The notes under the pieces: generated by a model
Seen by the model: only the letters and a program-made list of their open reading frames with translations
What the model was told of the DNA's origin: nothing
Database searches by the model: none
Shown here: positions 462 to 64,000 of the stretch, one piece after another
How the letters are laid out: every line of letters begins with the position of its first letter
How positions within the stretch are numbered: the stretch's first letter is position 1
Made by a program: the position numbers and the translations under genes
Assembly: GCA_963781585.1 (NCBI GenBank)
Contig: CAWAGQ010000005.1
Coordinates: 128,001 to 192,000 of the forward strand
Direction: 5' to 3'
Length of the DNA stretch: 64,000 bases
From: an uncultured Gemmatimonadaceae bacterium
GTDB taxonomy: Bacteria > Gemmatimonadota > Gemmatimonadetes > Gemmatimonadales > Gemmatimonadaceae

Positions 462-2849
462 GTGTCAGATCTCGTCACCGCCTTGCGAGATGCCCTCGCC
501 GGCCGATATACCATCGACCGCGAGATCGGCCATGGTGGCATGGCGAGCGTCCTCCTCGCGCATGACGTGCGGCACGACCGTCCCGTCGCGGTCAAGGTGC
601 TCCACCCCCAGATCGCCGCAGCGGTGGGATCCGAGCGCTTCCTTCGCGAGATCCAGGTAGCGGCTCGGCTGCGACACCCGCACATTCTGCCGCTCTTCGA
701 CTCCGGCGAGGCGGCGGGACTCCTGTTCTACGTGATGCCGTACGTGGCCGGGGAGTCCCTGCGCGAACGACTGCGGCGGGCGGGCGCCCTTCCGTTGGCG
801 GACGCGTTGCGCATCGCCCGCGAGGTGGCAGACGCGCTCGACTACGCGCATAAGCAGGGAGTGGTGCATCGCGATATCAAACCCGACAACATACTGATCG
901 ACGACCGGCACGCGCTGATCGCGGATTTCGGCATCGCGCGCGCCGTCGCGCTCGACGACACGAGCGAGATGCTCACGTCCACGGGTCTGCTCGTGGGCAC
1001 GCCGGCGTACATGAGCCCGGAGCAGGTGAGCGGCGACCGCCTGCTCGACGGCCGGAGCGACCTCTACGCGCTGGGGTGCGTGCTCCATGAAATGCTCACG
1101 GGCGAGCCGCCGTTTTCGGGTCCGACGGCGCAGGCCATCATGGCAAAGCGCTTCGCCGGCGCCGCGCCGGCCATACCGGCTGACATCCCGCCGCCGGTAA
1201 CGGCGATCGTCGCTACGGCAATGCAGGTGGTCCCCGACAAGCGCTATGGCTCCGGGCGGGAGATGGCCGACGCACTCGACGCCGCAGAGAGCGCGAGCCG
1301 GGGTGTCGTGCCGACACCCGCGACGATGGCGACCAGGCCACCATTGCTGCGCCGTCCCGCCGTCGTGCTGGGCACGGCCGGCGCCCTCGTCGCGGTGATC
1401 GTGGCCGCCGTGCTGCTGAGGCAGCACGAACCAGCCGGAGCGGCACCCCCGGTGCAGGCCGCGTCGATCATGCCCTCGGTTGGCGTGCTGCCATTCGCCA
1501 ACCGGAGCGACAGCCGGGAGATGGAGTACTTCAGTGACGGCGTCACCGACGAGCTCATCACCGCGCTTTCGCGGGTGACCGGGATTCAGGTGGCCGGTCG
1601 TACCTCATCATTCTCGCTGAAGGGCAAGGGGCTCACGGCGCAGCAATCGGCCGACACGCTGCACGTGAAACTGCTGATCGACGGCAGCGTGCGGAGCAGC
1701 GGCCCGAGCGTCCGGGTGACGTGGGGTCTGATCGACGGCGCGAGCGGGCGGAGTCTCAACACCGGCGACTTCGACGGTGAGATGCGCAACGTCATCGCCC
1801 TGCAGGATTCGCTCGCCCGCACCATCGTGGCGCAGCTGCAGCCGGCGTTAGGCATCACGGTCACAGCCTCCACGCCCCGCCATACCACCGCGAACTTCGA
1901 GGCGTACAATCTGTATCTGCAGGGGCACTACTACTGGAACCAGCGGACGCCCGCGAGCATGCGGCGCGGCATCGCGTACTTCCGGGACGCCATCGCGCGG
2001 GATTCCGGCTACGCGCTGGCGTGGGCGGAACTGTCGAGCGCCTACACCCTGGAGGCGGGATTCGGCGACATGCGCCCCGGTGAGGTGCGGGACCTCGCGC
2101 GCGCGGCCGCCGAGCGGGCGGTGCGTCTCGACTCCACCCTGTCGGAGGGGTATACGGCGTTAGGCATCTGGCATTCGCTCGCAAACCAGGACTGGGCGAC
2201 GGCGCTGCCATATCTGGATCGGGCGGTGGCACTCGACTCGGCCAACTCGTTTCCGCACCTCTTTCGTACCTGGCCGCTGCTGGCGCTCGGACGCGGAGAG
2301 GAAGCCCTGGCTGAGGTCCGGAAGGCCGTGGCGCTCGATCCGCTGGCACCCACGCAGAATGCGCGGCTGGGCACCGTCCTCACCTGCCTGCGCCGCTACG
2401 ACGAGGCAATCGCCGGATTGCGCCGGGCCATCGAGCTCGATCCGTCAAACGTGCAGGCACGATTCGAGCTGGGGCACGCGTACGCGATGAAGGGTCGATT
2501 CGACGAGGCGTTCAAGGCGTTTCCCGACGCCATCGAATCGCAGGCCGGGTTCTCCACCGGATGGCTGGCCGCTTCCCTTGGCCGGGCCGGGCGGCCGGCG
2601 CAGGCGCGCGCGCTCTACGACCGGTTGCTGGCGCTGTCGAGGCAACGGCACGTCACGCAGGAGGCGCTGGCCCTCGCCGCGCTCGGCGCCGGTGACAAGT
2701 CACTCGCGCTGGACTGGCTGGAACGCGGGGTGCGCGAGCATTCGTTCTATCTCGTCTTTCTGAATGACGATCCGCTGTTCGACCCGCTGCGGAACGAGCC
2801 GCGGTTCCAGGCGATGCTGCGGCAGCTCCGGTTTCCCGGCGTGGGGTAG
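462..2849 (+). CDS. Hanks-type Ser/Thr protein kinase with TM segment, TolB-N-like domain and TPR repeats
   Basis: IGHGGMASV, VAVK, HRDIKPDN, DFG and GTPAYMSPEQ motifs; hydrophobic segment near aa 300-320; SVGVLPFAN..YFSDGVTDELI domain; TPR-like helices. Confidence 0.95.
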   Translation: MSDLVTALRDALAGRYTIDREIGHGGMASVLLAHDVRHDRPVAVKVLHPQIAAAVGSERFLREIQVAARLRHPHILPLFDSGEAAGLLFYVMPYVAGESLRERLRRAGALPLADALRIAREVADALDYAHKQGVVHRDIKPDNILIDDRHALIADFGIARAVALDDTSEMLTSTGLLVGTPAYMSPEQVSGDRLLDGRSDLYALGCVLHEMLTGEPPFSGPTAQAIMAKRFAGAAPAIPADIPPPVTAIVATAMQVVPDKRYGSGREMADALDAAESASRGVVPTPATMATRPPLLRRPAVVLGTAGALVAVIVAAVLLRQHEPAGAAPPVQAASIMPSVGVLPFANRSDSREMEYFSDGVTDELITALSRVTGIQVAGRTSSFSLKGKGLTAQQSADTLHVKLLIDGSVRSSGPSVRVTWGLIDGASGRSLNTGDFDGEMRNVIALQDSLARTIVAQLQPALGITVTASTPRHTTANFEAYNLYLQGHYYWNQRTPASMRRGIAYFRDAIARDSGYALAWAELSSAYTLEAGFGDMRPGEVRDLARAAAERAVRLDSTLSEGYTALGIWHSLANQDWATALPYLDRAVALDSANSFPHLFRTWPLLALGRGEEALAEVRKAVALDPLAPTQNARLGTVLTCLRRYDEAIAGLRRAIELDPSNVQARFELGHAYAMKGRFDEAFKAFPDAIESQAGFSTGWLAASLGRAGRPAQARALYDRLLALSRQRHVTQEALALAALGAGDKSLALDWLERGVREHSFYLVFLNDDPLFDPLRNEPRFQAMLRQLRFPGVG

Positions 2850-3057
2850 TCCATTCCTCTCCTCTCTGCGGCTTCTGCGGTTCACGGACCACCGGAGGCG
2901 CGAAGGACACAGAGCATCCGCTTCATCCGCCAAATCCGTTGCCGTTTCAGCTCCTGGGCATGGGCAGGGCGTGCGAGTCCGACCGGGCCGCAACACCCTC
3001 CCCTCTCCGGCACCAGCATTCAGACTCCCACAAAGGCCGACACAGGACGTCCGCAAC

Positions 3058-4711
3058 ATGACCGTCACGAGATCATCTGTACGCTCACCGCGCCGAAGTA
3101 GTCGGTTTTTCCGGGTCGCGATGCGCGGCGCCGCGATAACACTCGCCAGCGCTGCCGGGTTCGCCCAAGCATCCGCTCAAACGACCGGCGGTGCAGAGGC
3201 CCGCGCCGCGGCCCGGGAGTATCGCGAGGCGAACGAAGCGAAGCTGGTCCGCGACTTCGCGACCCTGCTCGCCATGCCTAACGTGGCGTCGAACCTGGCC
3301 AACGTACGGCGGAACGCGGACTACCTGTCGGTCGCTGCTGCGCGAGCGCGGCATCACGCCTCAGCTGTTGGAGGTGCCGAACGCGCCCCCCGCGGTGTAC
3401 GGCGAGCTCACGACCCCGGGCGCCACGCGCACCGTCGTGCTCTACGCACACTACGACGGCCAGCCGGTGGATCCGACGCAGTGGGCCGGGGCGCCGTGGA
3501 CCCCGGTGCTCCGCGACAAGCCGCTCACCCAGGGCGGTCATGACGTCCCCTTCCCCGCCCCCGGCCAGGCGGTGAACGGCGAGTGGCGCATCTACGCCCG
3601 CTCGGCCGGCGACGACAAGGCGTCGATCATGGCGATGCTCACCGCGCTCGACGCCATGCGCGCGGCGAAGCTCGCCCCGACGGTCAACGTCAAGTTCTTC
3701 TTCGAGGGCGAGGAGGAGGCGGGTTCGGGCCACCTCGAGGCGATCCTGCGCAAGTACAAGGACCTGCTCCGTGCCGACGCCTGGCTCTTCTGCGACGGCC
3801 CCGAGCACCAGACCGGGCGCCAGCAGGTGCTGTTCGGGCAGCGGGGCGTGGTGGATCTCGAACTCACCGTCTACGGGCCCACTCGGCCGCTGCACAGCGG
3901 CCACTACGGCAACTGGGCGCCGAATCCGGCTGCGCTGCTGGCCAACCTGATTGCGTCGATGCGCGACGACGACGGGCATATCCGGATCGCCGGCTACTAC
4001 GACGACGTGCGTCCGATCAGTGCCGCCGAGCGACAGGCGCTGGCCGCGCTGCCGGCGATCGACCCCACACTGCGCGCCTCGTTAGGCCTGGCACGCACCG
4101 AGGCCGGCGACGCACCGCTGGTGGAGCGGATCATGATGCCCGCGCTCAACGTGCGCGGACTGCGGGCGGGCGGGGTGGAGGAGACCTCGGCCAACGTGAT
4201 CTCCACCGAGGCGCTGGCGTCGTTCGATTTCCGGCTGGTGCCCGATCAGACGCCCGAACACGTGAAGCAGCTCGTCGAACGGCACCTCGCGGCGCAGGGA
4301 TACCACATCGTTCGCGACGTGCCCGACTCAGCCACCCGGGTGACGTATCCGAAGATCGCGCGGCTGCGGTGGGGGAGCGGGTATCCGGCGCAGCGAGCGT
4401 CGCTGGACGACCCGTTCGGGCGGGCGCTCATCGCCGCGCTGTCCGACGGCGCGCCGCAGCCGCCGCTCGTGCTGCCCACGTCGGGCGGGAGCGGGCCGAG
4501 CTATCTATTCACCGAGATCCTGGGTGCGCCGGTGGTGGGGCTCCCGATCGCCAACTACGACGACAACCAGCACGTCGCGAACGAGAATCTGCGGCTGCAG
4601 AATCTGTGGGATGGGGTCGAGTTGTACGCGGGGTTGCTGGTGCGGCTGGGACCGGCGTGGAGGAGCGCCGGGGTGACGCCAGACAGCTTCTCGCGGCTTC
4701 GCACTCCTTAG
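3058..4711 (+). CDS. M20/M25/M40 family metallopeptidase with signal peptide; one frameshift near 3330
   Basis: YAHYDGQP, ARSAGDDK, EGEEEAGS, LHSGHYGN and NQHVANEN motifs; the N-terminus (..MPNVASNLANVRRNADYL) is in another frame. Confidence 0.9.
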
Positions 4712-8778: not shown

Positions 8779-11235
8779 TCAGGGCGCCCGAGTCCACAAT
8801 ACAATCGTCCCGCACGCCGCCCCGGTCCCTCCAAACTGGATGGGCGTATTCGCCGGTCCCGGGTAGATTTCCATCGCCTCGACGCCATTCGGTGCAAAGT
8901 CGTCGATGTTGGGCGGCTTCACCAGCCCGCCCGGTTGAAAAATCACCGCTCCGTCGAGGTAGATCTGGAAATAGCACCGGTTAACGCCATAGGAGCCGTC
9001 CGGAAGCGCCTCTGTTGACAGTCGATCGAGAGTCGACGCGAAAGCTGAGCGGGTGCTCTCGAGAAAGACCGTATTATCAGGCCGGCGCACGAGCCTTACC
9101 CCGGGCACCGAGCGCAGGATGTCGCTCAGGCGCGAGTGCTCGCGTGCGGCGAGTTGCGCCCGGGTGATGAAGTGTCCCCCGGCATTCATCGCGCGCCGCT
9201 CCTCGAACCCCCGCATCTTCGCCGCCACGGCTGTTCCCGTCACCACCACACCGGGCAGTTCCGTCACGTTCGGCGTCAGCACGAACTCGCGCACCGCGTC
9301 CGCCGGCTGCGGCAGCGTCACCCGCGCGAGCACCGGCCGATAACCCACCGCGCGCACCACCACCGTGTATGTCCCCCAGGGCAGCATCGCGAAGGCGAAC
9401 GCGCCGTCGGCCGCCGTCCGCGCCGCACGGGACACGCCGGGCAGCAGCACCTCCGCAGCCACGGCCGGCCGCATGGTAGAGTCGTGCCTCACGACTACCC
9501 GCCCTCGCAGCGTCGTCGCCTTCGCCGCCGTCGCGCTCAACGCCAGCGTCACCTCGACCGCGCTCGCGGTGTCGGCCGCGGCCACGGTGCGGTCCCCGAT
9601 TGCCCCGCCCAGTTCCGCGTGCAGCCGCACGAGGTCCACCCGCGGTGGCCGGCAGAAGGTCACGATCCCGGCCTCGTCGGACTCGGTCTCGATGGTCGAG
9701 TCGCCCACTGACGCACTCACCAGCTCCGTTGCCGCCTGGACGGCGAGCCGCCGCCACGACAGCAACGTTCGCGCCCCGGGGACCGGAGCGTGCGTGAGTG
9801 AGTCGACGACGTACCCGATAATGAGCTGCGGCCGCTCGCCGCGACCGGTCTCGGCACCGCAATAGCGTGCACGTAGCGTCGCCGCACTCGACACCGTCCA
9901 GTTGGCGACCGACTCGCTCCCCCGGGAGAGCACGACCTCCTGCTGCGCTCCGTGCGTACCAAAGCGCACGAGTCGCGGGTCGTCGGTGGCCAGGATGTAG
10001 CGCCCCGCCAGAACACTCCGGAGCCGGTACCGGCCCGCGCTATCGGTCACCGCCTCGGCCACTCCGCCTGCCAGGCTGAGGTGCGCGCTCGACATGGGGA
10101 CCCCGCGCACACTGTCGAACGCCACCCCGGTCAGCGCCGGCAGGTCGGCCGGCGCCTCCCGGCCAGCGGCGAGCGCGGCCCACCCGCCCTCCTCACGGTA
10201 GCCGAGCAGACTGTCGCGGGCAGGCACGGTGAGCGCGCCGACGCGCACCGCGCCCACGCGGCCCAGCCGCGGGAGCCGGATGTACCACTGGCCCACAATC
10301 CACTGGCCGTTAGGCAGGGCTACGAACTCCAGCCGCCCGCCGGCGCGCCCCGCCTCGTTGCGCATGGGCAGGTGCGTGTACGTGTAGTCCAGCCACCGCA
10401 GTTCCGCGCTCGGCTGCTCGACCCAGAGCACCCCGCTCACGTCGCTCACCGTGCGCCCGGGAGCCGGCTCGAAAGCAAGTCCGATCAGCGCGTCGGTCCC
10501 GGCGAGCTCCTTCACGGCGAAGCAGTGGTCCTGCGTGAAGCGGTCCGACAGGAGGAGCCCCGCGTCGGGGGCGAAGAAGGTGAGCGTACCGTCCACGTCG
10601 TGGGCAAAGCCCAGGCGCGAGAGCTCCTCCGGCGGGGCAGTCGCGAACGGCATCCCTCCCGGAATTCCGTGCGAGGAGGTGGTCTCGGCGACCACGCGCA
10701 GCGCCTGGTCGAGGGTGCGCGTGTAGCGCAAGACCTGGATGGGGAGCCCCTGCGGCGCCGAGAGGACCGTGGCGTCGAGCGCCTTGCGCACTTCTGCCCA
10801 CAGCCGGGCCGCCGCCGTGCCCGTCGCCGGATCAAGCCGGCAAGAGCGGCGTGCACGGACGTCAACCTTCTCGAGCGTGAGGGGGCGCGCAACGAGGGCG
10901 AGGCGCACCGCCAGCGGATCGGCCTCCACCACCAGGAGCCCGGAGCTGTCGGCCGCGTAGCCGATGCGCTCGGCGCGGACCCGGACGCGCGCGCCTAACG
11001 TGGCATGCAGCGTGGCGCGTCCCTGTTCGTCGGTGAGCGCGGCGGTGGGCCGCGAGCCGTCGGCGAGCACCAGCGAGGCGATCGCGCCCACGAGTGGCGT
11101 GTCAGACGCCCGGTCCACCACCAGCACGCGAACGCTCTGCGCAAACAGGCCACAGCCCGGTAACCCAACCGTGAGGATGGAGGCGATGAGCCCACATACC
11201 GCGCGGCGCACTAGTCTGACTCGCTGCCGGCGCAT
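8779..11235 (-). CDS. Exported protein with carboxypeptidase-regulatory-like domains and a C-terminal TonB-plug-like domain (no beta-barrel)
   Basis: Signal peptide; TDEQGRA..RIGY, TDSAGRY and ADGAFAF..RAVGY repeats; HFITRAQL..SDILRSVPGV..IYLDG..VEAMEIYPG..CGTIVLWTR end. Confidence 0.82.
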   Translation of the reverse strand: MRRQRVRLVRRAVCGLIASILTVGLPGCGLFAQSVRVLVVDRASDTPLVGAIASLVLADGSRPTAALTDEQGRATLHATLGARVRVRAERIGYAADSSGLLVVEADPLAVRLALVARPLTLEKVDVRARRSCRLDPATGTAAARLWAEVRKALDATVLSAPQGLPIQVLRYTRTLDQALRVVAETTSSHGIPGGMPFATAPPEELSRLGFAHDVDGTLTFFAPDAGLLLSDRFTQDHCFAVKELAGTDALIGLAFEPAPGRTVSDVSGVLWVEQPSAELRWLDYTYTHLPMRNEAGRAGGRLEFVALPNGQWIVGQWYIRLPRLGRVGAVRVGALTVPARDSLLGYREEGGWAALAAGREAPADLPALTGVAFDSVRGVPMSSAHLSLAGGVAEAVTDSAGRYRLRSVLAGRYILATDDPRLVRFGTHGAQQEVVLSRGSESVANWTVSSAATLRARYCGAETGRGERPQLIIGYVVDSLTHAPVPGARTLLSWRRLAVQAATELVSASVGDSTIETESDEAGIVTFCRPPRVDLVRLHAELGGAIGDRTVAAADTASAVEVTLALSATAAKATTLRGRVVVRHDSTMRPAVAAEVLLPGVSRAARTAADGAFAFAMLPWGTYTVVVRAVGYRPVLARVTLPQPADAVREFVLTPNVTELPGVVVTGTAVAAKMRGFEERRAMNAGGHFITRAQLAAREHSRLSDILRSVPGVRLVRRPDNTVFLESTRSAFASTLDRLSTEALPDGSYGVNRCYFQIYLDGAVIFQPGGLVKPPNIDDFAPNGVEAMEIYPGPANTPIQFGGTGAACGTIVLWTRAP

Positions 11236-12506: not shown

Positions 12507-12518
12507 GCCGACAGCACG

Positions 12519-12761: not shown

Positions 12762-13140
12762 CTACTCATCCACCACCGTCTGCCCCTGCCTGCCGAACAC
12801 GAGCATCCCGCCCTGGAACGATGATCATCGCGCCTAACGCTGTGAGGGCCGTGAAGCGCTCGCCGAACAGCAGCACCGCCCAGGCCACCGCGAACACGAT
12901 CTGCAGAATCCCCGCCGTGGTCGCCCGCGCGGTGCGCTCGATCTGCAGTCCGCGCGTCATGTACATCTGCGCCAGCTGAGTCGCGCACCCCGCCCCGATC
13001 AGCAGCGTCCACTCCACCATGCCGGGCATCCGCCAGTGCAGCGCCACAAACGGCAGCGCCATCGGGATCTGCACCAGCGGCAGGTAGAAGACCACCACCA
13101 TGGGGTGCTCGACCTCGAGCCGGCGGATGGTGGCATACGC
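12762..13140 (-). pseudogene. Duplicated 3' portion of the DMT/EamA transporter gene
   Basis: YATIRRLEVEHPMVVVFYLPLVQIPMALPF..; close DNA match to 14476-14857; no 5' half; frameshift near the end. Confidence 0.92.
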
Positions 13141-14475: not shown

Positions 14476-15387
14476 CTACTCCTCCATCGTCACCGCCTGC
14501 TGCCTGACGAGCACCAGCATGCTCGCGCCGGCCACGATCGTCACCGCGCCGGCCACCGTCCATAGCGTGAACCGCTCGCCGAAGAGCAGCACCGCCCACG
14601 CCGCCGCGAAGACGATCTGCAGATAGCCGGTCGTGGTGGCGCGCGCGGTGCGCTCGATCTGCAGCCCGCGCGTCATGTACATCTGCGCGAGCTGGGTCGC
14701 GCACCCCGGCGCCGATCAGGAGCGCCCACTCCACCAAGCCAGGCATGCGCCAGTGCAGCGCCACGAACGGCAGCGCCATCGGGATCTGCACCAGCGGCAG
14801 GTAGAAGACCACCACCATGGGGTGCTCGACCTCGAGCCGGCGGATGGTCGCGTACGCCGCGCCGCTGCACGCGGCCCCGCCGAGCGCAATGAGGGCCCAG
14901 ACCGGCGGAATGCCGCTCGACGCACCGCCGAACAGCAACGCCGGCCGGGTGACGAGCAGCACCCCGATCAGCGACGTCGCCAGCGCCAGCAACTCGCGCT
15001 TCCCGATGTGTTCGTGGTACCAGAGCGACGCCAGAATGATCGCGAATACCGGATTGGTGTACTGGATCAGCGTTGCCTCGCCTAACGGGAGATGGGTGAG
15101 CGAGAAGATGAAGCAGGCCAGGGCCAGCGACCCCAGATGCCCCGCAGGACGAGCAGCCGCCGCTGGACGCCGAAGATCGCCCGCCCCCGCACCGCCCGGC
15201 GCAGCAGCACCAGGTAACTCAGGCCCAGCGTCACCAGCCCGCGATACAGCACGATGTCCATGCTCGGCACGGTGCGCCCGGCGAGCTTCACCAGCACGCT
15301 CATCACGCTGAACCAGAACGCGCCGATCGCCATGTAGCGGATGCCCGACGGGACGTCGGCGACCGCGTGCGTGATGGTGCGGGTCAT
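14476..15387 (-). CDS. DMT/EamA family transporter; frameshifts near 15137 and 14710
   Basis: Multiple TM helices; LPLGEATLIQYTNPVF and LQIVFAAAWAVLLFGE motifs across three frames. Confidence 0.88.
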
Positions 15388-35035: not shown

Positions 35036-35361
35036 TCTCCGCACCTCCGCTTCGGGGACCTCACGCCGGCGGCGCCGTGGAGCACCTGCGGCGCATGACT
35101 CCACGCCAACCGCCTGCCTAACGTCCCAGCTTGACCCGCACCACGCCCACGTCGAATGGCGAACCACGCGATCGACGTGGCCTCACACGATGATCTGGCA
35201 GGCAACAGGGCGCCAGTTCGCTTCTGAAAGCGTCGTAACGGATTTGAAAGGTACGAACGCCGGAGACGCTCCCCCGCAGCTCGAGCTCGCTTGGGTGCGG
35301 TTACGCTGTCGCGCGAGCATGGCGTCAGCCGCGCCGGTGCGTGACGCGATGCGGGCGCGCG

Positions 35362-43186: not shown

Positions 43187-44112
43187 GCGTACCGCTCCTT
43201 ATGCAGCTCGTACTCGAGCATCCTCGCCTCGGCGTGGCCCTCTCCGGCCACGTATCCAGCCGCCTCGCCGATCGCCCAGAGGACGCTTCCGCCGGCCACG
43301 GCCACCAGCGTGCCCCTCGGGAGGCGGTTGTCGCTGCCGGCGAGCGTGACCGCCGGACGTGTCCTCGCGAAGCGGACCAGGGGAACGAGCGCCGACCCGC
43401 AGAAGTAGACCACTCTACGGGTGAGCGACCATTCCCGGCTTCGGTGCGACCCGAACAGCCGGCCGCCCCAATAGCGTTCGGCCGCCCACGCGATCCAGGG
43501 CGCGACATTCAGGTGCGCCACACGCGCGTTAGGCACGTGACAGAACCGCGCGCCCCGCGCGGCCAGCGCTGCATCCAGCGGCCCGCCCGGCTCCAGCATG
43601 TGCGCGAGCCCGTCGCCCGCGCTCAGCAGGACGTCGCGCTTCCAGCAGGCGTTGTAGGCCGGAGGCTCGGCAATCCGGCCCGCCGGACGCTCGGCGAGGA
43701 AGCGACCGTAATCCATGACCAGGCCACTCCAGCTGCGTGCGGTCCGCGGATTCCCGTTTGCCATGCCGGGCGCCACCGCGTCCCACGGGCCGTCGTGGGC
43801 CGCAAGCAGCTGCTCGGCCCACGAAGGCGCCGGGAACGCATGCGTCTCGCCGAGGACCACGACTGGCGCGCGCGCCGCGCGAACGCCCGCTGCCCGGGCC
43901 ACGCCCATCGGCACGAGCGGGCTCTCCACCACGGTAATGCCCGAAAGCGCATCTGCCGTGTCAGCCGGCACCTGGCAGTTCGTCGCCGACGGGCACACCG
44001 CCACCAGCTCGATCTCACGCGCCAGCGTCTGGGCGCACAGATGGCTCGTCACGCGACGGATGGTCGCGTAGTCGTCGGTGAGAATGACGATCGAGAGTCG
44101 GGGGGCAGGCAT
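43183..44112 (-). CDS. Glycosyltransferase family 2-like protein (paralogue of the downstream gene)
   Basis: LSIVIL..ARAAGVRAARAPVVVLGETH; shared HLNV and EYE.H motifs. Confidence 0.82.
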   Translation of the reverse strand: MPAPRLSIVILTDDYATIRRVTSHLCAQTLAREIELVAVCPSATNCQVPADTADALSGITVVESPLVPMGVARAAGVRAARAPVVVLGETHAFPAPSWAEQLLAAHDGPWDAVAPGMANGNPRTARSWSGLVMDYGRFLAERPAGRIAEPPAYNACWKRDVLLSAGDGLAHMLEPGGPLDAALAARGARFCHVPNARVAHLNVAPWIAWAAERYWGGRLFGSHRSREWSLTRRVVYFCGSALVPLVRFARTRPAVTLAGSDNRLPRGTLVAVAGGSVLWAIGEAAGYVAGEGHAEARMLEYELHKERYA

Positions 44113-49190: not shown

Positions 49191-49773
49191 TTCACTCCCG
49201 TCGGTCCGTTCGGGGAAGTCAGAGGTGGCTCATTCAGATCCGGGACAGCCGTTCTCGCCTCGCAGTGGGCACGCCCATGCCGGCGTTCCGAGGCGACCCC
49301 AGCACTGACGCACTCGGAACTTAGGTGCCCGGCGCAACGGCGAAAGGAGGCGGCCCCCGGTACGAGCGTTCCGCGCGCGCCCGTGCCACGGAGCCCCGAC
49401 GCCAAGCCGCGATTCCAGCCGCGCAGGTGGTAGCCTGGCTCCGCGGCCCCTGACGTCGTGCGCGTTAGGCGAGCCGCCGCGTCCCATTGCCACGCCCGAG
49501 ACGCCCGAGCCTGCATGAATTTCGTGCAACCGGGCCCAGGGACATCCGGCTCCGCTGAGGCCGCGTAATCGCAGGCGACACGGGCACCTTCGCTCACGGG
49601 GCTGGCACGAATACCCGCTTGCCACGGCTCAGTGAAGACCGGGGATCATCCGGGTACTAGTTCCTGCGAGACACGGTGGTCACGCCGGCAGCCTGGCGGA
49701 CTTGTCATTGAGGGTTCGCTTCGCCCTGCGCGAAGCACCGGTCCCGAATTCCGACGCAAATCACGGAGGCACT

Positions 49774-51380: not shown

Positions 51381-52042
51381 AGCAGGTTCTCGCGCACCGC
51401 CCGCGCCACCGCCCCGCTGCGGTTGTTCACGTGCAGCTTGGCGTAGATGTTGCGCACGTGACCGTCGATGGTGTGCGGGCTCAGGCGCAGCTCCCCGGCG
51501 ATGTCGTTCTTGGTGAGCCCGTCCACCAGCCGCTGGAGGATCTGGCGTTCGCGGTCGGAGAGGCCGTAGTCGGTCTGCGGCGTGGCCATGCGCGCGAACA
51601 TCTCGAGCACCCGGCGCGCGATCTGCGCGTCCATCGCCGCGCCGCCATCAAGCACTTTCTCGATCCCGCCCATGATCTCGTCCCGGGGCGACGATTTGAG
51701 CAGGTACCCGGACGCGCCCGCGCACACGGCCTCGAAGATCTTCTCGTTGCTCTGGTGCACGGTGAGCATGACCACCGGGATCGACGGATTGGTCTTCCGG
51801 ATGGATCGAACGCAGTCGGTCCCGCTCATGCCGGGCAGGGCCAGATCCATGAGAATGAGGCGGGGCAGTTCCTTCCCGTCGCCTAACGCATCGAGCGCGG
51901 ACTCGGCATCGGCGAACAGCTCGGTGCAGGTGAACCGGTCACTCTGGTCGAGCAGCTCGCCCAGGGTGCGCCGATACATCGCGCTGTCCTCCACCACCCA
52001 GATGGGCGCCCGATGATTCGCAGTGCGACCGGCCCCGCTCAT
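51377..52042 (-). CDS. NarL/LuxR-family response regulator
   Basis: VVEDS, ILMDLALPG, GASGYLLK and LSDRERQIL..HVRNIYAKLHV. Confidence 0.95.
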   Translation of the reverse strand: MSGAGRTANHRAPIWVVEDSAMYRRTLGELLDQSDRFTCTELFADAESALDALGDGKELPRLILMDLALPGMSGTDCVRSIRKTNPSIPVVMLTVHQSNEKIFEAVCAGASGYLLKSSPRDEIMGGIEKVLDGGAAMDAQIARRVLEMFARMATPQTDYGLSDRERQILQRLVDGLTKNDIAGELRLSPHTIDGHVRNIYAKLHVNNRSGAVARAVRENLL

Positions 52043-57674: not shown

Positions 57675-60600
57675 TTGCGACTCACTGGCACCGACCTCGT
57701 CCTCTCGGCAACCGATCTCTCCAACTTCCTCGGCTGCCGCCATCGCACCGCGCTCGACATGGCGGCGGCGATGGGAGATCGGAAGCGCCCCTACCGCCAT
57801 GATCCGCTCCTCGACCTCCTGCGCCGGCTCGGTGACGAGCACGAGACCGCGCATCTCCGATCACTCGAGGACGACGGCCTGCCGGTCGTCCAGCTCGCCG
57901 GGGTCCAGGATCGCGACGACCGGATGGCCCGGACGCTCGACGCGATGCACGCCGGTGCGCCGGTCATCGCCCAGGGCGCGTTAGGCGACGGCCGGTGGTT
58001 CGGCTACGCGGACATTCTCCGGCGGGTGGAACGTCGCAGCGACTTTGGCGAGTGGTCGTACGAGGTCGCGGACACCAAGCTGGCGCGCGACACCCGCGCC
58101 GGGACGATTCTGCAGCTCGGCCTCTACTCGGAGATGCTGGCGGCTATCCAGGGATCTCGCCCCGAGTACTTCCACGTCATCACGCCGGACCCGCTCACGC
58201 CGGTCCATTCGTTTCGCGTCGACGACTTCGCTGCCTACTTCCGCCTCGTCCGCCGCCAGATGACCGATGCTGTCGCCGATGAGTACCCGGCGATACTCGC
58301 CGCCAACTACCCCGATCCCGTCGAGCACTGCGAGGTGTGCCCGTGGGATCCGGAGTGCCGGGAAAAGCGTCGCGCCGACGATCATCTCTCGCTCGTAGCC
58401 GGGATCACGCGACTGCAACGGCGGGAACTGGAGGGCAGGAGCGTCTCCACGCTCACGCAGCTCGCCGGGTTGCCGGTGCCGCTCCCGTTCAGGCCGCGTC
58501 GTGGATCGGTGGAGACGTACCACCGCGTACGCGAGCAGGCGAGGGTGCAGCTCGACTCGCGCGGACGGACGCCGCCACTGCACGAACTGCGCGAGGTCAC
58601 GATCGGAGAAGGGCTGTGCCGTCTGCCCGAGCCGTCGCCGCGCGATCTGTTTCTCGACCTCGAAGGCGACCACTTCGCGATCAGCGGCGAATCCGACACT
58701 GGGCCAGATCAACAGCGCGGACGCGAGTACCTCTTCGGTCTGGTCCGTGCCGGCGCCGATGGGAACCCGGACTACCTCAGCTGGTGGGCGTTCGACGAGC
58801 GCGAGGAGCGTGCGGCGTTCGAAGAGGTCATTGACCTGATCATGGAGGCCTTGCGCGACGACCCGTCGATGCACGTTTACCACTACGCGCCCTACGAGCC
58901 ATCGGCGTTCAAGCGCTTGATGGGTCGTTATGCGACGCGCGGGGAGGAACTGGACCGTCTGCTGCGCGGTGGCCGCTTCGTCGATCTCTATGCCGTCGTG
59001 CGACAGGCAATGTGGGCCGGCGTGGAGAGCTACTCCATCAAGCGACTGGAGCCGCTCTACGGTTTCACCCGCGACGTCGACCTCGGCCGCGCCAACGAGA
59101 GCCTTGCGGTGATGGAGCAGGCGCTGTGGCTCGGGCGAGCGACCGATCTCCCTCGTGAGGTGCGCGACGTGGTGGAGGGATACAATCGCGACGACTGCAT
59201 CTCGACGCTTCGCCTTCGCGACTGGCTGGAGCGCGTGCGGGAGGAAGCAGTCGCCGGCGGCGCGGACGTGCCGCGTCCGGTGCCTCCGGCCGATCAGGCG
59301 AGCGCACAGGTCGCCGAGCGCGATGCGCGGGTAACCGAGCTGCGCGCGCGACTGCTCGCGGATGTGCCGGAGACGCCGAGCGAGCTCACGGGCGAGCACC
59401 GTGCGCGCTACATCCTGGCGTACCTGCTCGACTGGCATCGGCGCGAGGACAAGGCGACCTGGTGGGAGTACTTTCGCCTGCGTGATCTGGCGGAAGAGGA
59501 TCTGTTCGACGAGCCGCAGGCCGTGGCCGGGATGCGATTCGTGGAGCGGGTCGAGGTTGTGCGGCGCAAGAAGGGCGGACGGCCGACCGGCTCGGTAATC
59601 GATCGGTACGAGTTTCCGTCACAGGAAATGGAGATACGGCGGGGAGCGGAACTCCATCTGCTGACCGAAGATGCTGGGAGCGCGGCTGAGGACGATGAGG
59701 CCGGCAGTCCGGCTCCGCAGCACCAGGTTTGGCGGGGTCGTCAGAACCGATCGGGCCGCGCGCACGATCGACGTGAAGAAGGGCCCCAAACGGGCGGAGG
59801 ATCATCCATCGGCGGTCTTCGCGCACATGCATATCCCACCCAGGGTACTCGAGGACGCGATCTTCCGCGTTGGCGAGAGCGTCGACGCGGACGGTCGCGT
59901 CGACGCCGGACTGCCATCAGCCGCCCGCGATCTCCTGCTGGCACGCGCCCCGCGAGTCCATACCGGCACTTTCGCGCCACGCGACGGCGAGTCCGTCACC
60001 GACTACGCCGTCCGACTCGTGGGCGATCTCGACCACACGGTGTTGGCCATTCAGGGCCCGCCGGGTTCGGGCAAGACGTACACGGGCGCCCGGATGATCT
60101 GCGCGCTGGTGAAGCAGGGGAAGAAGGTCGGCGTCACGGCGAACAGCCACAAGGTGATTCGCAACCTGCTCGATGCGGTGGCGCACGAGGCGGAGAGGCA
60201 GCGCGAGACGGTGCGGCTCGCGCACAAGGTGCGCGATGGCGACGACGAGGATGACGATGACATCGCCCGCGGGCACGCGACGGTGGTACGCGAGACGAGC
60301 GACAATGGCGAAGCGCGTGGCCTGCTCCAGTCTGGGGAGGCGGACGTGCTCGGCGGCACCGCCTGGCTCTGGGCACCCGAAGACTTCGCGGGGGCGGTGG
60401 AGGTGCTGTTCGTCGATGAGGCCGCACAGATGTCGTTGGCCAACGCCGTCGCGGCCTCGGGCGCCGCGAACAGCCTCGTCCTGCTCGGTGATCCCCAGCA
60501 GCTGGCGCAGCCGATCAAGGGCAGTCATCCCGATGGCGCCGGCGTCTCGGCCCTCGAACACATGCTGGGCGGGCACAAGACCATGCCGCCGGATCGCGGC

Positions 60601-61367: not shown

Positions 61368-63143
61368 CTATGGGTCGTGGGACCGGCCACCGGAGTTGCG
61401 CGACTGGTCCTGTTCGCCAACGCCGAGCGGCAGTTGCACCTCCACCCGCGTCCCCCTTCCCTCGCCACTCTCGATGTGCAGGAATCCGCCGTGCGCGACC
61501 GCAATCTGCCGCGCGATCGGGAGCCCCAGTCCCGTTCCCTCTTCTCTGGTTGAATAGAACGGATCGAGCACGCGATCGATCTGGTCGAGCGGTATGCCAT
61601 GACCGGTGTCCGCGACGACTACGTGGACGAACGACTCGTCCCGATCCACGGTGACCTGTGTTGATCCGCCAGCCGACAACGCCTGGGCGGAATTCAGGAA
61701 CAGGTTCAGGAACAGCTGCTCGAGCGCCAAGGCATCACCACGCACGATCACCGGCGCATCACCCGGGGCGCAATACAGGGCAGTGTCCCGCTCGGCAAAA
61801 GTGCACTCTGCGCCCCGCGCGGCGGCGAGCAGCACGTCGCGGAGATCGAGACGGCGTCGCGTTACTCTTCCTCCACGCGCGAGCCGTAACGAACTCGTCA
61901 CCGCACCGTCCAGCCGCCGCACCGAGGTGAGCGCGCGCTCGATCAACGCTCTGCTCTCGGTGTTGTCGCGCAGCTTCTCGTCCGCACGCTGCAGGTCCAC
62001 CCGAATCGAGGTCAGCGCATTGCGTACCTCATGCGACAGCGACGCCGCGTACTCCCCCACCGCCGCCAGCGCCTGACGCTGCGACAGGTCGCCCAGCGTC
62101 CGCCGCAGGCTCTCGGTCATGCGGTTGAATGCGCCGGCCACACGCCGCACTTCGGTGCTTCCCCGCGCCTCGACTCGGCCTTCCAGCTCGCCACCTGCCA
62201 CCGCATCCGCCGCGTCCGCCAGATTCTCGAGCGACGACGTGAGGCGCGTTGCCAGCCATGCCGTGAGCAGAATCGCCATCAGCGACGCGACCGCGACACT
62301 CATCACCCCGACGCGGGCCGCCGACTGAAATGGTGTCACATACCGCTCGCGCGGCCCGGCAACCACCAGATCGAGCGCCGGCTCCGCCATCACCTGCCGC
62401 ACCGCGATCCAGTCCTGGCCCGCGGCCGTGAATCGCTCGTGCCGGGTCAGCGAATCCGTGAACTCCGACGGCAGCAACCCGGATCCGGTACGACGGTCCA
62501 CCAGCTGCACCACCCCGCCGTTAGGCAGTCGCAGGGCCGTATCGGCCGGCAGGATGGCGCGCACCTGCACCAGCGCCGTCATTTCGCCGAGGGTGACGTG
62601 TTCGGACGATACCACCGGCAGACGCACCTGCATGCCCGCGGGCGCCACACCCGCACCGCTACGGCGCGAGGCATCCGCGGAATCTCCCGGTGTGGCATGC
62701 TGCAGCGTGAACACGACGTGTCCCGCAAGGTCGCGATACTCGGCCAGCGGAATGCCTGCGGACAAGGTAGCGAACAGCCGGCTGAGATACTGCGAGTCCG
62801 CCGTGGCCGGCGCGCCACCGCCTGCTGCGCTCAGGAGCCGCTGCGCCACCACGTTGCTCGCCAGGAGCCCAAGATCGGCGCGCCGGTACCCCCAGCGATC
62901 CTCGATCGCCGCCGCGATCCTCGCCCGTGATTCCTCCAGCTCCGAGCGCAGCAGCGATTCGCCCGCCCGCGAAATCGAGCTGGTCACAAAGAACCCGATC
63001 AGCGCGAGCGGCACCACCGCGGCCCCAAGCACGACCAGGATCACACGACCCCGGAGCGACCCGAACATCGCGCGCGGCGGCATGACGGCCCCGCCACCGG
63101 TCCCTCCTCCTCCGGCGTCAGGCACGCCGCCTGGTCTCGTCAT
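61368..63143 (-). CDS. Membrane sensor histidine kinase (HAMP, HisKA, HATPase)
   Basis: Two TM segments; SHEVRNALT, NLFLNS and DTGHGI..PFYST..GTGLGL. Confidence 0.94.
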   Translation of the reverse strand: MTRPGGVPDAGGGGTGGGAVMPPRAMFGSLRGRVILVVLGAAVVPLALIGFFVTSSISRAGESLLRSELEESRARIAAAIEDRWGYRRADLGLLASNVVAQRLLSAAGGGAPATADSQYLSRLFATLSAGIPLAEYRDLAGHVVFTLQHATPGDSADASRRSGAGVAPAGMQVRLPVVSSEHVTLGEMTALVQVRAILPADTALRLPNGGVVQLVDRRTGSGLLPSEFTDSLTRHERFTAAGQDWIAVRQVMAEPALDLVVAGPRERYVTPFQSAARVGVMSVAVASLMAILLTAWLATRLTSSLENLADAADAVAGGELEGRVEARGSTEVRRVAGAFNRMTESLRRTLGDLSQRQALAAVGEYAASLSHEVRNALTSIRVDLQRADEKLRDNTESRALIERALTSVRRLDGAVTSSLRLARGGRVTRRRLDLRDVLLAAARGAECTFAERDTALYCAPGDAPVIVRGDALALEQLFLNLFLNSAQALSAGGSTQVTVDRDESFVHVVVADTGHGIPLDQIDRVLDPFYSTREEGTGLGLPIARQIAVAHGGFLHIESGEGRGTRVEVQLPLGVGEQDQSRNSGGRSHDP

Positions 63144-63154
63144 GACCCGGATGG

Positions 63155-64000
63155 CTATTCGAGGTCGTACTTCTCGAGAAGCCGGTTGAGCCGCGGACGC
63201 GACACGCCGAGCAGCTCGGCGGCTCGGGCCTTGTGCCCGCCCGTCGCCTCCATCACGCGTCGCACGTGCTCGCGCTCCACCTCGTTCAGCGCCGCGATCG
63301 GCGCCGCCTGCGCCTTGCGCGGCGACGCCATGCTCAGATGCTCGGGCCGGATTACTCCCCCGGACGCCACCACCACCGCGCGCGCCAGGCAGTTCTCCAG
63401 CTCCCGCACGTTGCCGGGCCAGTCGTACTCCATCAGCCGCGCGAGTGCCTCCCGCGACAGCACGGCCGGTGCCGCTGCCGACGCCGCGCTCAGCCGCCGG
63501 ATGAGCTCCTCGGCGAGCTGCGGAATGTCGGTCCGCCGCTCGCGGAGTGGCGGCAACGCGATCTCCACGACCCGCAGTCGGTAATACAGGTCCTCGCGGA
63601 ACGTGCCCTCGTCGAGCATCGCTTCCAGATCGCGATGAGTGGCTGCGATCACGCGCGCGTCGGTGCGCTCGCTCTTCTCCGCGCCTAACGGCTCGAACTC
63701 ATGGTCCTGGATGACCCGCAGCAACTTGGTCTGGAAGTCCGGCGAGGTATCCCCGATCTCGTCCAGGAAAATCGTGCCGCGGCCGGCCAGGGCGAACCGC
63801 CCCTTGCGCGCGTTCACCGCCCCGGTGAACGCGCCGCGGGTGTGACCGAACAGCTCCGACTCCAGCAGCGCGGTGGGAAGCGCGGTGCAATTCACCGGAA
63901 CGAACGGTTCGGCCGCCGCCGCCGAGTTGGCGTGGATGGCACGGGCGACCAGCTCCTTGCCGGTGCCGCTTTCGCCGCGAATCAGCACGGTGGCGCGCGT
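63155..64000 (-). CDS. Sigma-54-dependent (NtrC-family) activator, 5' end outside the window
   Basis: [35 protein letters not shown] and Fis HTH. Confidence 0.96.

Follow-up and report, generated by a model that had tools for sequence, protein, structure and literature searches.

An eight-base DNA word held far above chance in genes of Gemmatimonadaceae, with likeness to the self-DNA tags of naturally transformable bacteria

The window analysed here is a stretch of 64,000 nucleotides from the genome (G000) of a soil-type member of the Gemmatimonadaceae, with called genes ranging from a Ser/Thr kinase at its start to a histidine kinase near its end. In and between these genes lie 24 exact copies of the octamer CGTTAGGC, 12 on each strand (Table 1). 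In 100 dinucleotide shuffles of the window the mean was 1.16 copies and the maximum 5, and 24 copies were reached in none (0/100). An exact-match search retrieved each of the 24 positions listed in a first-pass annotation of this DNA and detected no overlooked copy, and the seven variants sharing the core of the word exist as well. Of the 17 in-gene copies in the window 16 read as TTA-GGC or CCT-AAC, as had been proposed. The exact word is absent from 4087 to 10308 and from 11000 to 12832. The latter interval agrees with the earlier remark that 11.3–12.7 kb holds no exact copy; the segment at 4.7–8.7 kb, previously called AT-rich cassette DNA, is indeed free of copies and lower in GC, but features of integron cassettes were not seen on reading it. 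The copy in the amidase gene has counterparts at the same place in two related genomes, as CGTTAGGC in G015 and as CGTTAGGT in G009.

Table 1. Exact copies and core variants of the word in the 64-kb window. Gene boundaries are those of our own crude gene caller.
Feature	Position	Strand	Context
CGTTAGGC copy	1846..1853	+	sense, xCG-TTA-GGC, gene 462-2846(+), Ser/Thr kinase with TPR
CGTTAGGC copy	2158..2165	+	sense, xCG-TTA-GGC, gene 462-2846(+), Ser/Thr kinase with TPR
CGTTAGGC copy	3276..3283	-	intergenic, called genes 2846 / 3368
CGTTAGGC copy	4080..4087	+	sense, xCG-TTA-GGC, gene 3368-4708(+), M20 peptidase
CGTTAGGC copy	10308..10315	+	antisense to gene 8782-11211(-), there G-CCT-AAC-G
CGTTAGGC copy	10993..11000	-	sense, xCG-TTA-GGC, gene 8782-11211(-)
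CGTTAGGC copy	12832..12839	-	sense, xCG-TTA-GGC, gene 12769-13191(-), EamA-like
CGTTAGGC copy	15080..15087	-	stop codon source for gene 15085-15426(-), CGT-TAG-GC
CGTTAGGC copy	18869..18876	+	stop codon source for gene 18874-21849(-), GCC-TAA-CG
CGTTAGGC copy	22359..22366	-	sense, xCG-TTA-GGC, gene 22071-23384(-), NhaA
CGTTAGGC copy	23052..23059	-	sense, xCG-TTA-GGC, gene 22071-23384(-), NhaA
CGTTAGGC copy	25800..25807	-	antisense to weakly called gene 25373-25822(+), xGC-CTA-ACG
CGTTAGGC copy	26722..26729	+	intergenic (called genes), upstream of 26785
CGTTAGGC copy	28116..28123	-	antisense to gene 27733-28650(+), G-CCT-AAC-G
CGTTAGGC copy	32019..32026	+	sense, xCG-TTA-GGC, gene 31553-32689(+)
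CGTTAGGC copy	35116..35123	-	intergenic, called genes 35020 / 35365
CGTTAGGC copy	38415..38422	+	sense, gene 37100-38911(+), amidase
CGTTAGGC copy	43527..43534	+	antisense to gene 43186-44136(-), G-CCT-AAC-G
CGTTAGGC copy	48507..48514	-	sense, xCG-TTA-GGC, gene 47490-49091(-), beta-lactamase-family fold
CGTTAGGC copy	49463..49470	+	intergenic, called genes 49091 / 49792
CGTTAGGC copy	51881..51888	-	sense, xCG-TTA-GGC, gene 51380-51997(-), response regulator
CGTTAGGC copy	57979..57986	+	stop codon source for gene 57984-59399(-), GCC-TAA-CG
CGTTAGGC copy	62519..62526	+	antisense to gene 61371-63125(-), histidine kinase, G-CCT-AAC-G
CGTTAGGC copy	63683..63690	-	sense, xCG-TTA-GGC, gene 63158-64480(-)
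Core variant	5854		TGTTAGGG on the motif strand
Core variant	18384		CGTTAGGA on the motif strand
Core variant	30154		CGTTAGGG on the motif strand
Core variant	32518		GGTTAGGC on the motif strand
Core variant	33294		CGTTAGGT on the motif strand
Core variant	53308		GGTTAGGC on the motif strand
Core variant	56329		CGTTAGGA on the motif strand

The enrichment is not confined to the window. The genome of 5.715 Mb contains 1442 copies, 724 on one strand and 718 on the other, and CGTTAGGC is its most over-represented 8-mer. The earlier guess of two to three copies per window was sound for a zero-order model, which predicts 216.6 copies genome-wide or, by simple arithmetic, 2.4 per 64 kb. Markov models of order 2 and 3 predict 44–51 copies (about 30x enrichment) and a model with the word masked predicts 19 (76x). 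Nor does the enrichment vanish when codons and dicodons are taken into account. Shuffling synonymous codons inside each gene, by which proteins and codon counts are preserved, yields 18.4 sense and 27.7 antisense copies against 787 and 331 observed (1118 in genes, 24x). Neither of the two refuting outcomes named in the first-pass annotation, restriction to the window and loss under a dicodon-aware null, was thus obtained. To our knowledge, effects of such size are known only for uptake sequences and HIP1. Among variants of the word, CGTTAGGT is tolerated best across the genome (13.9x), while CGTTGGGC (243 observed, 251 expected, 0.97x) and CGTTAGAC (0.77x) are not enriched.

The word is written where the coding sequence permits, mostly as Leu-Gly in the form TTA-GGC after NCG, or as Pro-Asn on the opposite strand in the form CCT-AAC. 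Genome-wide, the 1442 copies divide into 758 xCG-TTA-GGC, 266 G-CCT-AAC-G, 64 xGC-CTA-ACG, 29 C-GTT-AGG-C and 325 intergenic or gene-edge copies, 113 of which supply a stop codon. The share of TTA codons lying within the word, a check proposed in the first-pass annotation, amounts to 758/1339 or 57%; outside the word CTA (1167) is more frequent than TTA (581). NCG precedes 758 of the 833 TTA-GGC dicodons compared with 2462 of the 13441 other Leu-Gly dicodons. Where word positions 2, 5 and 8 coincide with wobble positions, 15.7% and 31.8% of the possible peptide sites are occupied, whereas the alternative phase reaches 0.9% and 2.6%. This strong difference between frames is explained neither by codon rarity nor by the tRNA set; all five leucine tRNAs are present in the genome. 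The predominance of the xCG-TTA-GGC sense frame, whose enrichment relative to codon baseline exceeds that of the remaining three frames several-fold by our own arithmetic, would suit a signal at the level of translation, with the rare TTA in CG-UUA-GGC selected in the mRNA as a pause or for regulation via tRNA-Leu(UAA). Antisense copies (331 versus 28 expected), intergenic copies and stop-codon copies are enriched too, however, antisense copies are conserved between species and the word is strand-symmetric genome-wide, so that such a signal as sole cause is already disfavoured and appears extremely improbable.

The sequence flanking the copies contains almost no information. The strand balance noted earlier for the window, in contrast to Chi or KOPS sites, extends to the whole genome, and replichore polarity is absent: of the intergenic copies, 159 have the word on the strand richer in G and 166 on the opposite one, and four sampled carrier genomes show no polarity either. 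A second copy near an existing one is avoided: gaps below 200 bp number 20, whereas 200 block permutations gave 71 +/- 8 and never fewer than 54. The spacing in G009 (1.2 copies per kb) has a coefficient of variation of 0.76, and gaps below 100 bp number 0 there versus 9.9 expected. Across deciles of gene GC3 the density climbs from 0.057 per kb in the lowest to 0.403 per kb in the highest, even though the AT content of the word exceeds that of the genome. The word is rare in atypical (acquired) DNA and accumulates in long-resident genes.

Between related species whole copies are kept in 85–88% of orthologous comparisons. In genus g9, 40 of 47 comparisons retain the word at DNA identities of 66–83%, and in genus g56 the values are 18/20 and 19/22 versus 27–29% when every 8-mer window in those alignments is counted; antisense copies are likewise conserved. 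In the non-carrier congener G119 of genus g56 none of four sites is kept, and ordinary leucine codons, CG-CTC-GG[C/G] or CT-CTC-GGT, are found instead. With carriers defined by at least 300 copies, a threshold set after the fact, about 64 of 201 sampled Gemmatimonadaceae genomes qualify, with up to 7821 copies. Their distribution among the genera of the family is patchy. Beyond the family, carriers occur in two other Gemmatimonadales genera and, as one weak case, in another phylum (G469). Among carriers the density runs from about 0.06 to 1.3 per kb, a more than 20-fold range.

From these observations CGTTAGGC/GCCTAACG is a strict 8-base word that is actively kept by the lineage and read as DNA, via neither protein nor RNA. 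The lineage-specific DNA signal of the HIP1 or uptake-sequence kind postulated in the first-pass annotation is borne out insofar as the word is the top 8-mer, lacks polarity, is imposed on synonymous sites, is conserved, is depleted in atypical DNA and is patchy among genera; no tested methylase or competence gene tracks it. The genes of this bacterium and of many of its relatives contain one eight-letter word far above chance, in the manner of the self-DNA tags of a few DNA-uptaking bacteria.

By this analogy the word may be of the DUS/USS/HIP1 type and owe its persistence to bias in DNA uptake and recombination, a mechanism that we tentatively regard as quite possible. A sequence-specific step of transformation, either uptake or later processing, would favour own-kind DNA bearing the word, and repeated uptake followed by homologous replacement would fix word-creating synonymous changes and repair decayed copies. 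A single copy per imported fragment would be enough, and the even spacing is proposed to follow from this. Foreign DNA would lack the word. The uptake hardware in the genome of the window comprises ComEC, DprA, two secretins, an HHH_3/ComEA-like protein and a type IV pilus (pilM-N-O-Q, pilins and a minor-pilin operon including a GspH/FimT-like gene). ComEC and PilM are each found in 184 of 201 family genomes; with so nearly universal a distribution they do not account for a word that is restricted to roughly one species in three. The genera without ComEC in any sampled genome (g18, g51 and g70, 11 genomes) consist entirely of non-carriers. The six best matches to the FimT/GspH-like pilin belong to carriers, but G006 (the seventh) and, among the next matches, G120, G044 and G155 are not carriers, and the comparison is confounded by kinship; this pilin is too divergent to be captured by a profile. 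None of the genes compared with carrier status (IntI, RecC, ComEC, PilM, the FimT-like pilin and two methylases) clearly separates carriers from non-carriers. Competence is not known to have been reported for the phylum Gemmatimonadota, and no paper on this phylum was among those listed by a literature search. Also against the uptake reading stand the frame effect described above and, as detailed below, the lack of dialects and the scarcity of inverted-pair terminators. Any other word-specific maintenance process would yield identical statistics.

Several such processes have to be weighed. A recombination hotspot of the Chi kind, recognised in single-stranded form by a helicase-nuclease of the RecBCD/AddAB type, would account for an asymmetric, top-ranking octamer that is absent from foreign DNA and occurs once per 4 kb, about the density of E. 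coli Chi (GCTGGTGG); the likeness in form, density and rank extends to KOPS/AIMS. Unlike these, CGTTAGGC has no replication polarity, and its enrichment and per-site conservation are far above those known for Chi. In a search for RecC alone (PF04257) no match was obtained in the genome of the window or in most carriers (24/201 genomes, 5 of them carriers). This alternative is already disfavoured and very unlikely. The word could also be the site of an abundant, lineage-specific chromosome-organising or nucleoid protein, selected about once per few kilobases, which would fit the retention of whole words between species, the spacing more even than chance, the missing orientation rule and the restriction to native DNA. 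A more than 20-fold range of density among carriers is odd for an architectural need, though, and proteins of this class would be expected to bind more than an asymmetric 8-base site lacking extended flanks. No candidate can be named, and no tie to any chromosomal landmark appeared in the 17 contigs; the proposal is rather improbable. Alternatively, methylation or repair might drive the word without uptake, an asymmetric-site methyltransferase or a very-short-patch-like mismatch repair enzyme recognising it and, through biased correction or protection, slowly converting near-matches. Fully specified asymmetric sites of 6–8 bases are typical of Eco57I/MmeI-type enzymes, and a crude motif-based screen, which some methylases may have escaped, retrieved three large Eco57I/MmeI-like proteins (1000, 1076 and 1076 residues), a TaqI-like N6 methylase and a C5 methylase-Vsr fusion from the genome of the window. 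The frame effect would suit an action mainly at word position 5 (A), where a change can be silent only in the favoured phase, and according to PMC13756078 HIP1 is recognised by two methylases. Against this drive, a 1076-residue Eco57I-like protein is present with 50–54% identity in all five genomes tested (2 carriers, 3 non-carriers), the TaqI-like methylase occurs in 4/20 carriers and 2/21 non-carriers, and the C5-Vsr fusion gene (C7:477213-478673) itself sits in a word-free stretch of 24.6 kb (C7:457886-482458). If a single position were acted upon, the two remaining wobble positions would not be maintained, but it is whole copies that persist between species. Avoidance between neighbouring copies is likewise not expected of a mechanism working site by site, and the precursor CGTTGGGC is not depleted. 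We consider a drive of this kind doubtful.

The identity of the word with a known recombination site had been overlooked in the first-pass annotation. The R′ core of integron attC sites follows the consensus GTTRRRY (canonically GTTAGGC), with RYYYAAC as inverse core; CGTTAGGC equals GTTAGGC letter for letter with a preceding C. In G021 (contig C95), 26 copies of the word lie on one strand of a cassette array spanning about 24 kb; of 25 inspected, 22 complete a textbook attC hairpin that starts with GCCTAAC or GTCTAAC. The genome of the window encodes a true IntI (434.5 bits versus a cut-off of 265), and its own cassette arrays have attC sites starting with GCCTAAC and ending with GTTAGGC, GTTAGAC or GTTGAAC. 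The genomic copies might be the binding or crossover box of the integrase of integrons or of a kindred tyrosine recombinase of the Xer type, serving as attG-like landing sites for cassettes, as decoys titrating the integrase or as half-sites of a domesticated recombinase. IntI is widespread in the family (128/201 genomes at E<=1e-40, 115 above the cut-off), the best tolerated variant CGTTAGGT matches the final Y of the consensus, and the weak carrier G469 would suit a reader that crosses phyla. Integration of cassettes at genomic attG sites is reported in PMC12614218, citing Loot et al. 2024. IntI does not divide carriers from others, however, with IntI-like matches in 47/64 and 81/137, respectively (a hand tally at the post hoc threshold), and the strong carriers G060 (3249 copies, 97% complete), G094 and G118 show none. 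Genome-wide the copies are solitary duplex words, with neither an R′′-L′′-L′-R′ or other attC-like hairpin nor conserved sequence in their flanks, and GCCTAAC is paired with GTTAGGC within 35–140 bases at only 8 loci of the genome of the window. Most copies lie within conserved genes, which an inserted cassette would damage, and are nevertheless kept; the same core also serves in the arrays of non-carriers, G021 among them, and the purines that GTTRRRY leaves free are not interchangeable in the genomic word (CGTTGGGC and CGTTAGAC are not enriched). A post hoc match to some known motif is moreover not rare, TTAGGC being also the telomere unit of nematodes (C. elegans). A role of the copies as integrase sites is on balance unlikely. 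A variant of the uptake reading, in which the tag was borrowed from the integron core, is conceivable but hardly probable: a transformation step would prefer C-GTTAGGC DNA, its bias would have written the word into host genes, and cassettes, with the word on both arms of every attC, would be preferentially harvested from environmental DNA. If true, it would couple natural transformation and integrons mechanistically and account for the weak habit in G469.

Among known systems the DUS of Neisseriaceae comprise 10–12 bases and are bound by the receptor ComP, and the USS of Pasteurellaceae have a 9-base core; inverted-pair terminators are common for both, and dialects exist in Neisseriaceae. The DUS and USS traits compared here are described in part in PMC2817400, PMC3630211, PMC1939737 and PMC7371117. 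CGTTAGGC differs from them in its phylum, its length of 8 bases, its uninformative flanks, its identity with the integron core, the near absence of inverted pairs as terminators (1 clear case in the genome) and the absence of dialects, since no other hyper-abundant word was found in 200 kb each of two non-carriers. It resembles them as a short, non-palindromic, strand-balanced word with hundreds to thousands of copies at 0.06–1.3 per kb, mostly in genes and there in tolerant frames, conserved between orthologues, scarce in acquired DNA and limited to some lineages; genes for the uptake machinery are present in the genome of the window but equally in non-carriers. HIP1 (GCGATCGC) of cyanobacteria, in contrast, is palindromic and the target of methylases, whereas CGTTAGGC is asymmetric, not its own reverse complement, and tracked by none of the methylases tested. 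HIP1 is described in PMC13756078 as conserved, quasi-periodic, enhancing transformation and correlated with pilus and competence genes, and is now proposed there as a transformation or uptake signal; in Gemmatimonadaceae the presence of pilus genes and of ComEC does not follow that of the word. Both are nonetheless strict hyper-abundant octamers, imposed on coding sequence, conserved, quasi-evenly spaced and patchy across their phylum.

The first-pass annotation had claimed 24 copies of the non-palindromic word CGTTAGGC in the window, 12 per strand, together with seven variants of its core. All 24 coordinates are exact (12 plus, 12 minus), none had been overlooked and all seven variants are real, while 100 dinucleotide-preserving shuffles of the window (GC 62-70% in 2-kb steps) contain 1.16 copies on average and five at most. 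Nor is the enrichment confined to the window, a possibility that the annotation had itself raised: the whole assembly of the source genome, G000 (5,715,271 bases in 17 contigs; completeness and contamination estimated by tool at 93.5% and 7.2%), in which the window is C5:128001-192000, holds 1442 copies or about one per 4 kb, 724 of them forward and 718 reverse. Markov models of orders 0, 1, 2 and 3 predict 216.6, 89.4, 44.3 and 50.6 copies, and 19.0 are expected at order 3 after subtraction of the word's own contribution. No other 8-mer reaches its z-score at orders 2 and 3, and the next ranks are taken mostly by overlapping shifts of the word. Since its sub-words are dominated by the word itself, maximal-order Markov z-scores are unsuitable, and models of order 0-3 and word-masked models were used in their place.

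The full octamer is the enriched unit, as 1442 of the 1916 GTTAGG hexamers in G000 lie inside it. Among its one-letter variants, to which CGTTGGGC, CATTAGGC and CGTTAGGT belong, most occur at the number expected from the word-masked model, with six exceptions: CGTTAGGT (13.9x observed/expected), TGTTAGGC (8.9x), CGTTATGC (5.7x), GGTTAGGC (4.3x), CGTTAGGG (4.1x) and CGTCAGGC (3.6x), the last probably reflecting ordinary codon usage. In this profile strictness applies to the inner GTTAGG, and the outer letter on either side is softer. A silent transition from the word in its main frame yields CATTAGGC, which shows no enrichment (1.2x); simple decay therefore does not account for the enriched variants. 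The flanks are nearly uninformative (the two positions next to the word carry 0.2-0.3 bits) and show a periodicity of three bases that aligns positions 2, 5 and 8 of the word with the third positions of codons.

All statements on reading frames rest on our own crude gene calls, in which long ORFs were scored by codon log-odds (4442 genes, 84% of the genome). Within these genes two frames, which have one wobble phase in common, are favoured, and the copies are spread evenly along the genes.

Reading frames of the word in G000 and occupancy of the possible peptide sites
Frame	Copies	Frame as used for occupancy	Sites occupied	Share
xCG-TTA-GGC, sense	758	NCG-TTA-GGC	758/4834	15.7%
G-CCT-AAC-G, antisense	266	nnG-CCT-AAC-Gnn	267/839	31.8%
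xGC-CTA-ACG	64	nGC-CTA-ACG	64/2473	2.6%
C-GTT-AGG-C	29	nnC-GTT-AGG-Cnn	29/3180	0.9%
Intergenic or gene-edge	325

More than half of all TTA codons of the genome (758/1339, 57%) are found within the word. When synonymous codons were shuffled within each gene 20 times, which keeps the proteins and the per-gene codon counts with their inflated TTA, the sense copies numbered 18.4 (maximum 27) and the antisense copies 27.7 (maximum 37), versus 787 and 331 observed. Furthermore, NCG precedes 758 of the 833 TTA-GGC dicodons versus 2462 of the 13441 other Leu-Gly dicodons. The annotation had allowed that the excess might vanish under a dicodon-aware null; it survives both the codon shuffle and the conditioning on dicodons. 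Codon rarity was discarded as the cause of the frame bias, CTA occurring 1167 times outside the word versus 581 for TTA, as was tRNA supply, all five Leu anticodons being present in G000. The 'tRNA-Stop(tta)' that aragorn reports is probably spurious. Some of the 325 intergenic or gene-edge copies supply stop codons, namely TAG (CGT-TAG-GC) in 70 and TAA (GCC-TAA-CG) in 43 cases, three of them in the window. Overall stop use in G000 is TGA 2761, TAG 1336 and TAA 338, the word supplying 5.2% of TAG and 12.7% of TAA; on these crude gene calls the TAG share seems high for a genome of 67% GC.

Replication polarity is absent, with 159 intergenic copies on the G-rich strand and 166 on the opposite one; over all classes summed there is a mild excess, 763 versus 679, which tracks gene orientation. 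Strands are likewise mixed in four other carriers sampled, and apparent one-strand runs in large genomes proved to be an artefact of listing order, the actual DNA having its strands mixed. The word has a higher AT content than the genome, yet its density climbs with regional GC and increases seven-fold between the lowest and the highest GC3 gene decile (0.057 to 0.403 per kb). Stretches free of it reach 38.7 kb, and the longest of them mostly have a lower GC. The word thus marks long-resident DNA. One word-free stretch of the window looks like acquired DNA; it was considered as a set of integron cassettes and rejected, as no attC-like sites were seen on reading the DNA.

Copies avoid each other at short range. 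With positions permuted 200 times within 50-kb blocks, 71 +/- 8 gaps below 200 bp are expected (minimum 54) and 20 are observed; below 400 bp there are 48 versus 139 expected. In G009, a carrier at 1.2 copies per kb, gap lengths have a coefficient of variation of 0.76, with no gap below 100 bp versus 9.9 expected. A process acting independently on each site would not give such avoidance. Eleven pairs in G000 lie closer than 110 bases, one of them forming a hairpin, and no dif-like or paired arrangement was found.

Genomes with at least 300 copies, a cut-off set by hand after the counts were seen, are termed carriers. They make up 64 of the 201 genomes of the family, in which 77 genera were sampled, with a maximum of 7821 copies (G201) and a density range of more than 20-fold, while non-carriers mostly have 1-60 copies, below the count of the reversed word used as control. 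The genomes are mostly metagenome bins, and the tallies include ten unpublished ones (G008, G046, G047, G145, G253, G280, G350, G437, G462 and G565), all below the carrier threshold, and none of the claims depends on any one of these ten. Because kin are not independent, no P values are given across genomes. The trait is largely uniform within genera: all sampled members carry the word in g9, g55, g62, g69, g74, g77, g80 and g84, the exception being g56 with carriers and one non-carrier. Among 251 genomes of the phylum, the word exceeds the control outside the family only in three of five members of g110 (family f2) and in G030 (f3). None of 231 genomes from the phylum of G409, labelled Acidobacteria, lies above the control; one of them, G469, has 299 copies dispersed over both strands versus 314 for the control, and four of seven copies sampled there are in the CG-TTA-GGC phase. 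A search for other words ('dialects') in the non-carriers G063 and G054 found nothing comparable, the best being TGCTCAAG with 29 versus 4.8.

Between species the word is retained as a whole. At 66-83% DNA identity within g9 it is kept in 40 of 47 orthologous comparisons, single-letter departures being CGTTAGGT (twice) and CGTTATGC (once). In the mixed genus g56, copies of the carrier G161 (DATEKK010000020.1) are common to G061 in 18 of 20 cases and to G194 in 19 of 22, against backgrounds of 27.0% and 29.4% identical 8-base windows in these alignments, respectively. The non-carrier of this genus, G119, has 66 copies only and shows CGCTCGGC, CGCTCGGG, CTCTCGGT and CGCTCGGG at four aligned G161 word sites, a small sample, with x-Leu-Gly and an ordinary Leu codon at three of them. 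Across genera, the copy in the amidase gene of the window is present in G015 and reads CGTTAGGT in G009, which has extra copies of its own in this comparison.

The explanation ranked second, which we regard as unlikely, is that a tyrosine recombinase or the integron system accounts for the word. On contig C95 of the non-carrier G021, 26 copies lie on one strand within about 24 kb. TRF found no tandem repeat there, and the run is an integron cassette array: 22 of the 25 copies examined close hairpins of 88-136 bases that start GCCTAAC or GTCTAAC and contain the paired inner boxes and bulged bases of textbook attC sites. The attC core consensus is GTTRRRY/RYYYAAC, and since the word ends these hairpins it equals C plus GTTAGGC, the canonical R' core. 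Strand-lopsided counts in other non-carriers (e.g. 168:6 in G585) probably mark integron arrays as well, the array being confirmed in G021 only. G000 itself encodes an integron integrase, with cassette arrays adjoining it on contig C7 and on C13. Against this explanation, however, a hand tally gives IntI-like matches for 47 of 64 carriers versus 81 of 137 others, so that they fail to separate the two, carriers such as G060 show no IntI, the 1442 genome copies are solitary and most of them lie within conserved genes; the hairpin and the integrase dependence of attC sites are absent from the word. The identity of word and integron core may be a coincidence, or else the first sign that cassette traffic and a genome-wide tag are connected.

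Maintenance by methylation or repair drive appears improbable. Three large Eco57I/MmeI-like proteins are encoded in G000, besides a TaqI-like N6 methylase and a fusion of a C5 methylase with Vsr; yet each of the five genomes tested, both carriers and non-carriers, has the 1076-aa Eco57I-like methylase, and the TaqI-like enzyme is found in 4 of 20 carriers and 2 of 21 non-carriers. As a single 1076-aa ortholog (50-54% identity) occurs in five of five family genomes, it looks like a conserved core gene rather than part of a mobile restriction system. A site for a chromosome protein is rated just as improbable. None of the candidates profiled was identified as the reader of the word. Little weight is left for a Chi-like signal, as the polarity of Chi and KOPS is absent from the word and RecC, found in 24 of 201 genomes and not in G000, does not separate carriers from non-carriers. 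Little weight is given to a translational signal as well.

Judged from the sequence statistics, we tentatively favour a bias of uptake or recombination linked to transformation, which may maintain the word. These statistics match the defining genomic features of DUS/USS and, palindromy excepted, of HIP1. If one copy per DNA stretch suffices, short-range avoidance would result. G000 possesses DprA, two secretins, an HHH_3/ComEA-like protein and pilM-N-O-Q, along with several pilins and a minor-pilin operon that includes a GspH/FimT-like gene at C12:2042-2608; a FimT family member is reportedly a DNA receptor in Legionella. The six best matches of the FimT/GspH-like pilin are carriers, followed by non-carriers, and the protein diverges too much within the family to yield a clean profile. 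ComEC and PilM, each in 184 of 201 genomes, do not separate carriers from non-carriers. The genera without ComEC in any sampled genome (g18, g51 and g70) are all non-carriers, which is compatible with a link to DNA uptake and no proof of it. According to a published report, HIP1 enhances transformation and tracks pilus and competence genes (PMC13756078), which raises the prior that hyper-abundant words generally serve DNA exchange.

Among the matches listed in a literature search, the word was found in primers and unrelated sequences with no report of it as a genomic motif, and none of the papers listed on uptake or abundant words concerned Gemmatimonadota. To our knowledge, words at thousands of copies have been described in very few groups, namely Neisseriaceae, Pasteurellaceae and cyanobacteria; in each they gave insight into how bacteria recognize DNA of their own kind. 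The present word would be such a system in Gemmatimonadota, a phylum widespread in soil that has few cultured members and, as far as we know, no genetics. About one third of the sampled species being carriers, the wide density range and the one mixed genus constitute natural experiments that make the question testable. The word also separates native from acquired DNA, flags mis-binned contigs in metagenome bins, and may be required on DNA constructs for transforming these bacteria.

Coordinates of features in the window and in G000
Feature	Position	Remarks
Stretch without the word	window 4700-8700	62-64% GC; few confident gene calls
LuxR-type regulator gene	window 7440-7922
Copy in amidase gene	window 38415
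(AAAGGCC)n array	window 22026-22060	5 copies
(AAAGGCC)n array	window 44127-44224	14 perfect copies; intergenic
(CAGAGGY)n array	window about 46513-46575
1076-aa Eco57I/MmeI-like protein	C2:157769-160996
1076-aa Eco57I/MmeI-like protein	C6:144472-147699
2.5-kb unit	C7:172173-174746
2.5-kb unit	C7:182755-185345
2.5-kb unit	C13:about 307540-310000
Integron integrase	C7:185861-186859	TIGR02249, 434.5 bits vs cut-off 265
'tRNA-Stop(tta)' of aragorn	C14:156433-156507	poor T arm, odd anticodon loop

Cassette-like units lie 3' of the integrase gene of G000, whose 5' end is directly preceded by a large ordinary gene, a layout that would be unusual if confirmed. Three identical copies of a 2.5-kb unit carry genes for an IS91-like transposase and for a tyrosine recombinase of 303 aa. 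The junction of every copy is at G|TT, behind an attC beginning GCCTAAC, and TTAGGC or TTAGAC follows the copy; as the ends of the unit would rebuild an attC-like GTTCAAC...GTTGAAC, it acts as a gene cassette or an attC-homing element would.

An Rfam search of the window gave no match, and the NhaA encoded there has its best relatives (57-61% identity) in MAGs titled Gemmatimonadaceae or Gemmatimonadales, among other phyla, an assignment with which the gene content agrees. Comparison with G001, of the same genus, revealed no DNA-level synteny with the window beyond a simple-repeat match. Other carriers have strongly repeated short words of their own, TAGGGGATAG (G009:C1), CCCTAGCCCC (G160:C1) and (TTGGTGG)n-like ones (G060:C2). 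The tandem heptamer arrays of the window are intergenic. G000 contains 32 perfect heptamer arrays of at least four units, 13 of AAAGGCC and five of AGAGGCC; such arrays account for the other enriched k-mers AGGCCAAA and AGGCCAGAG and for the many short matches to G001 and G009.
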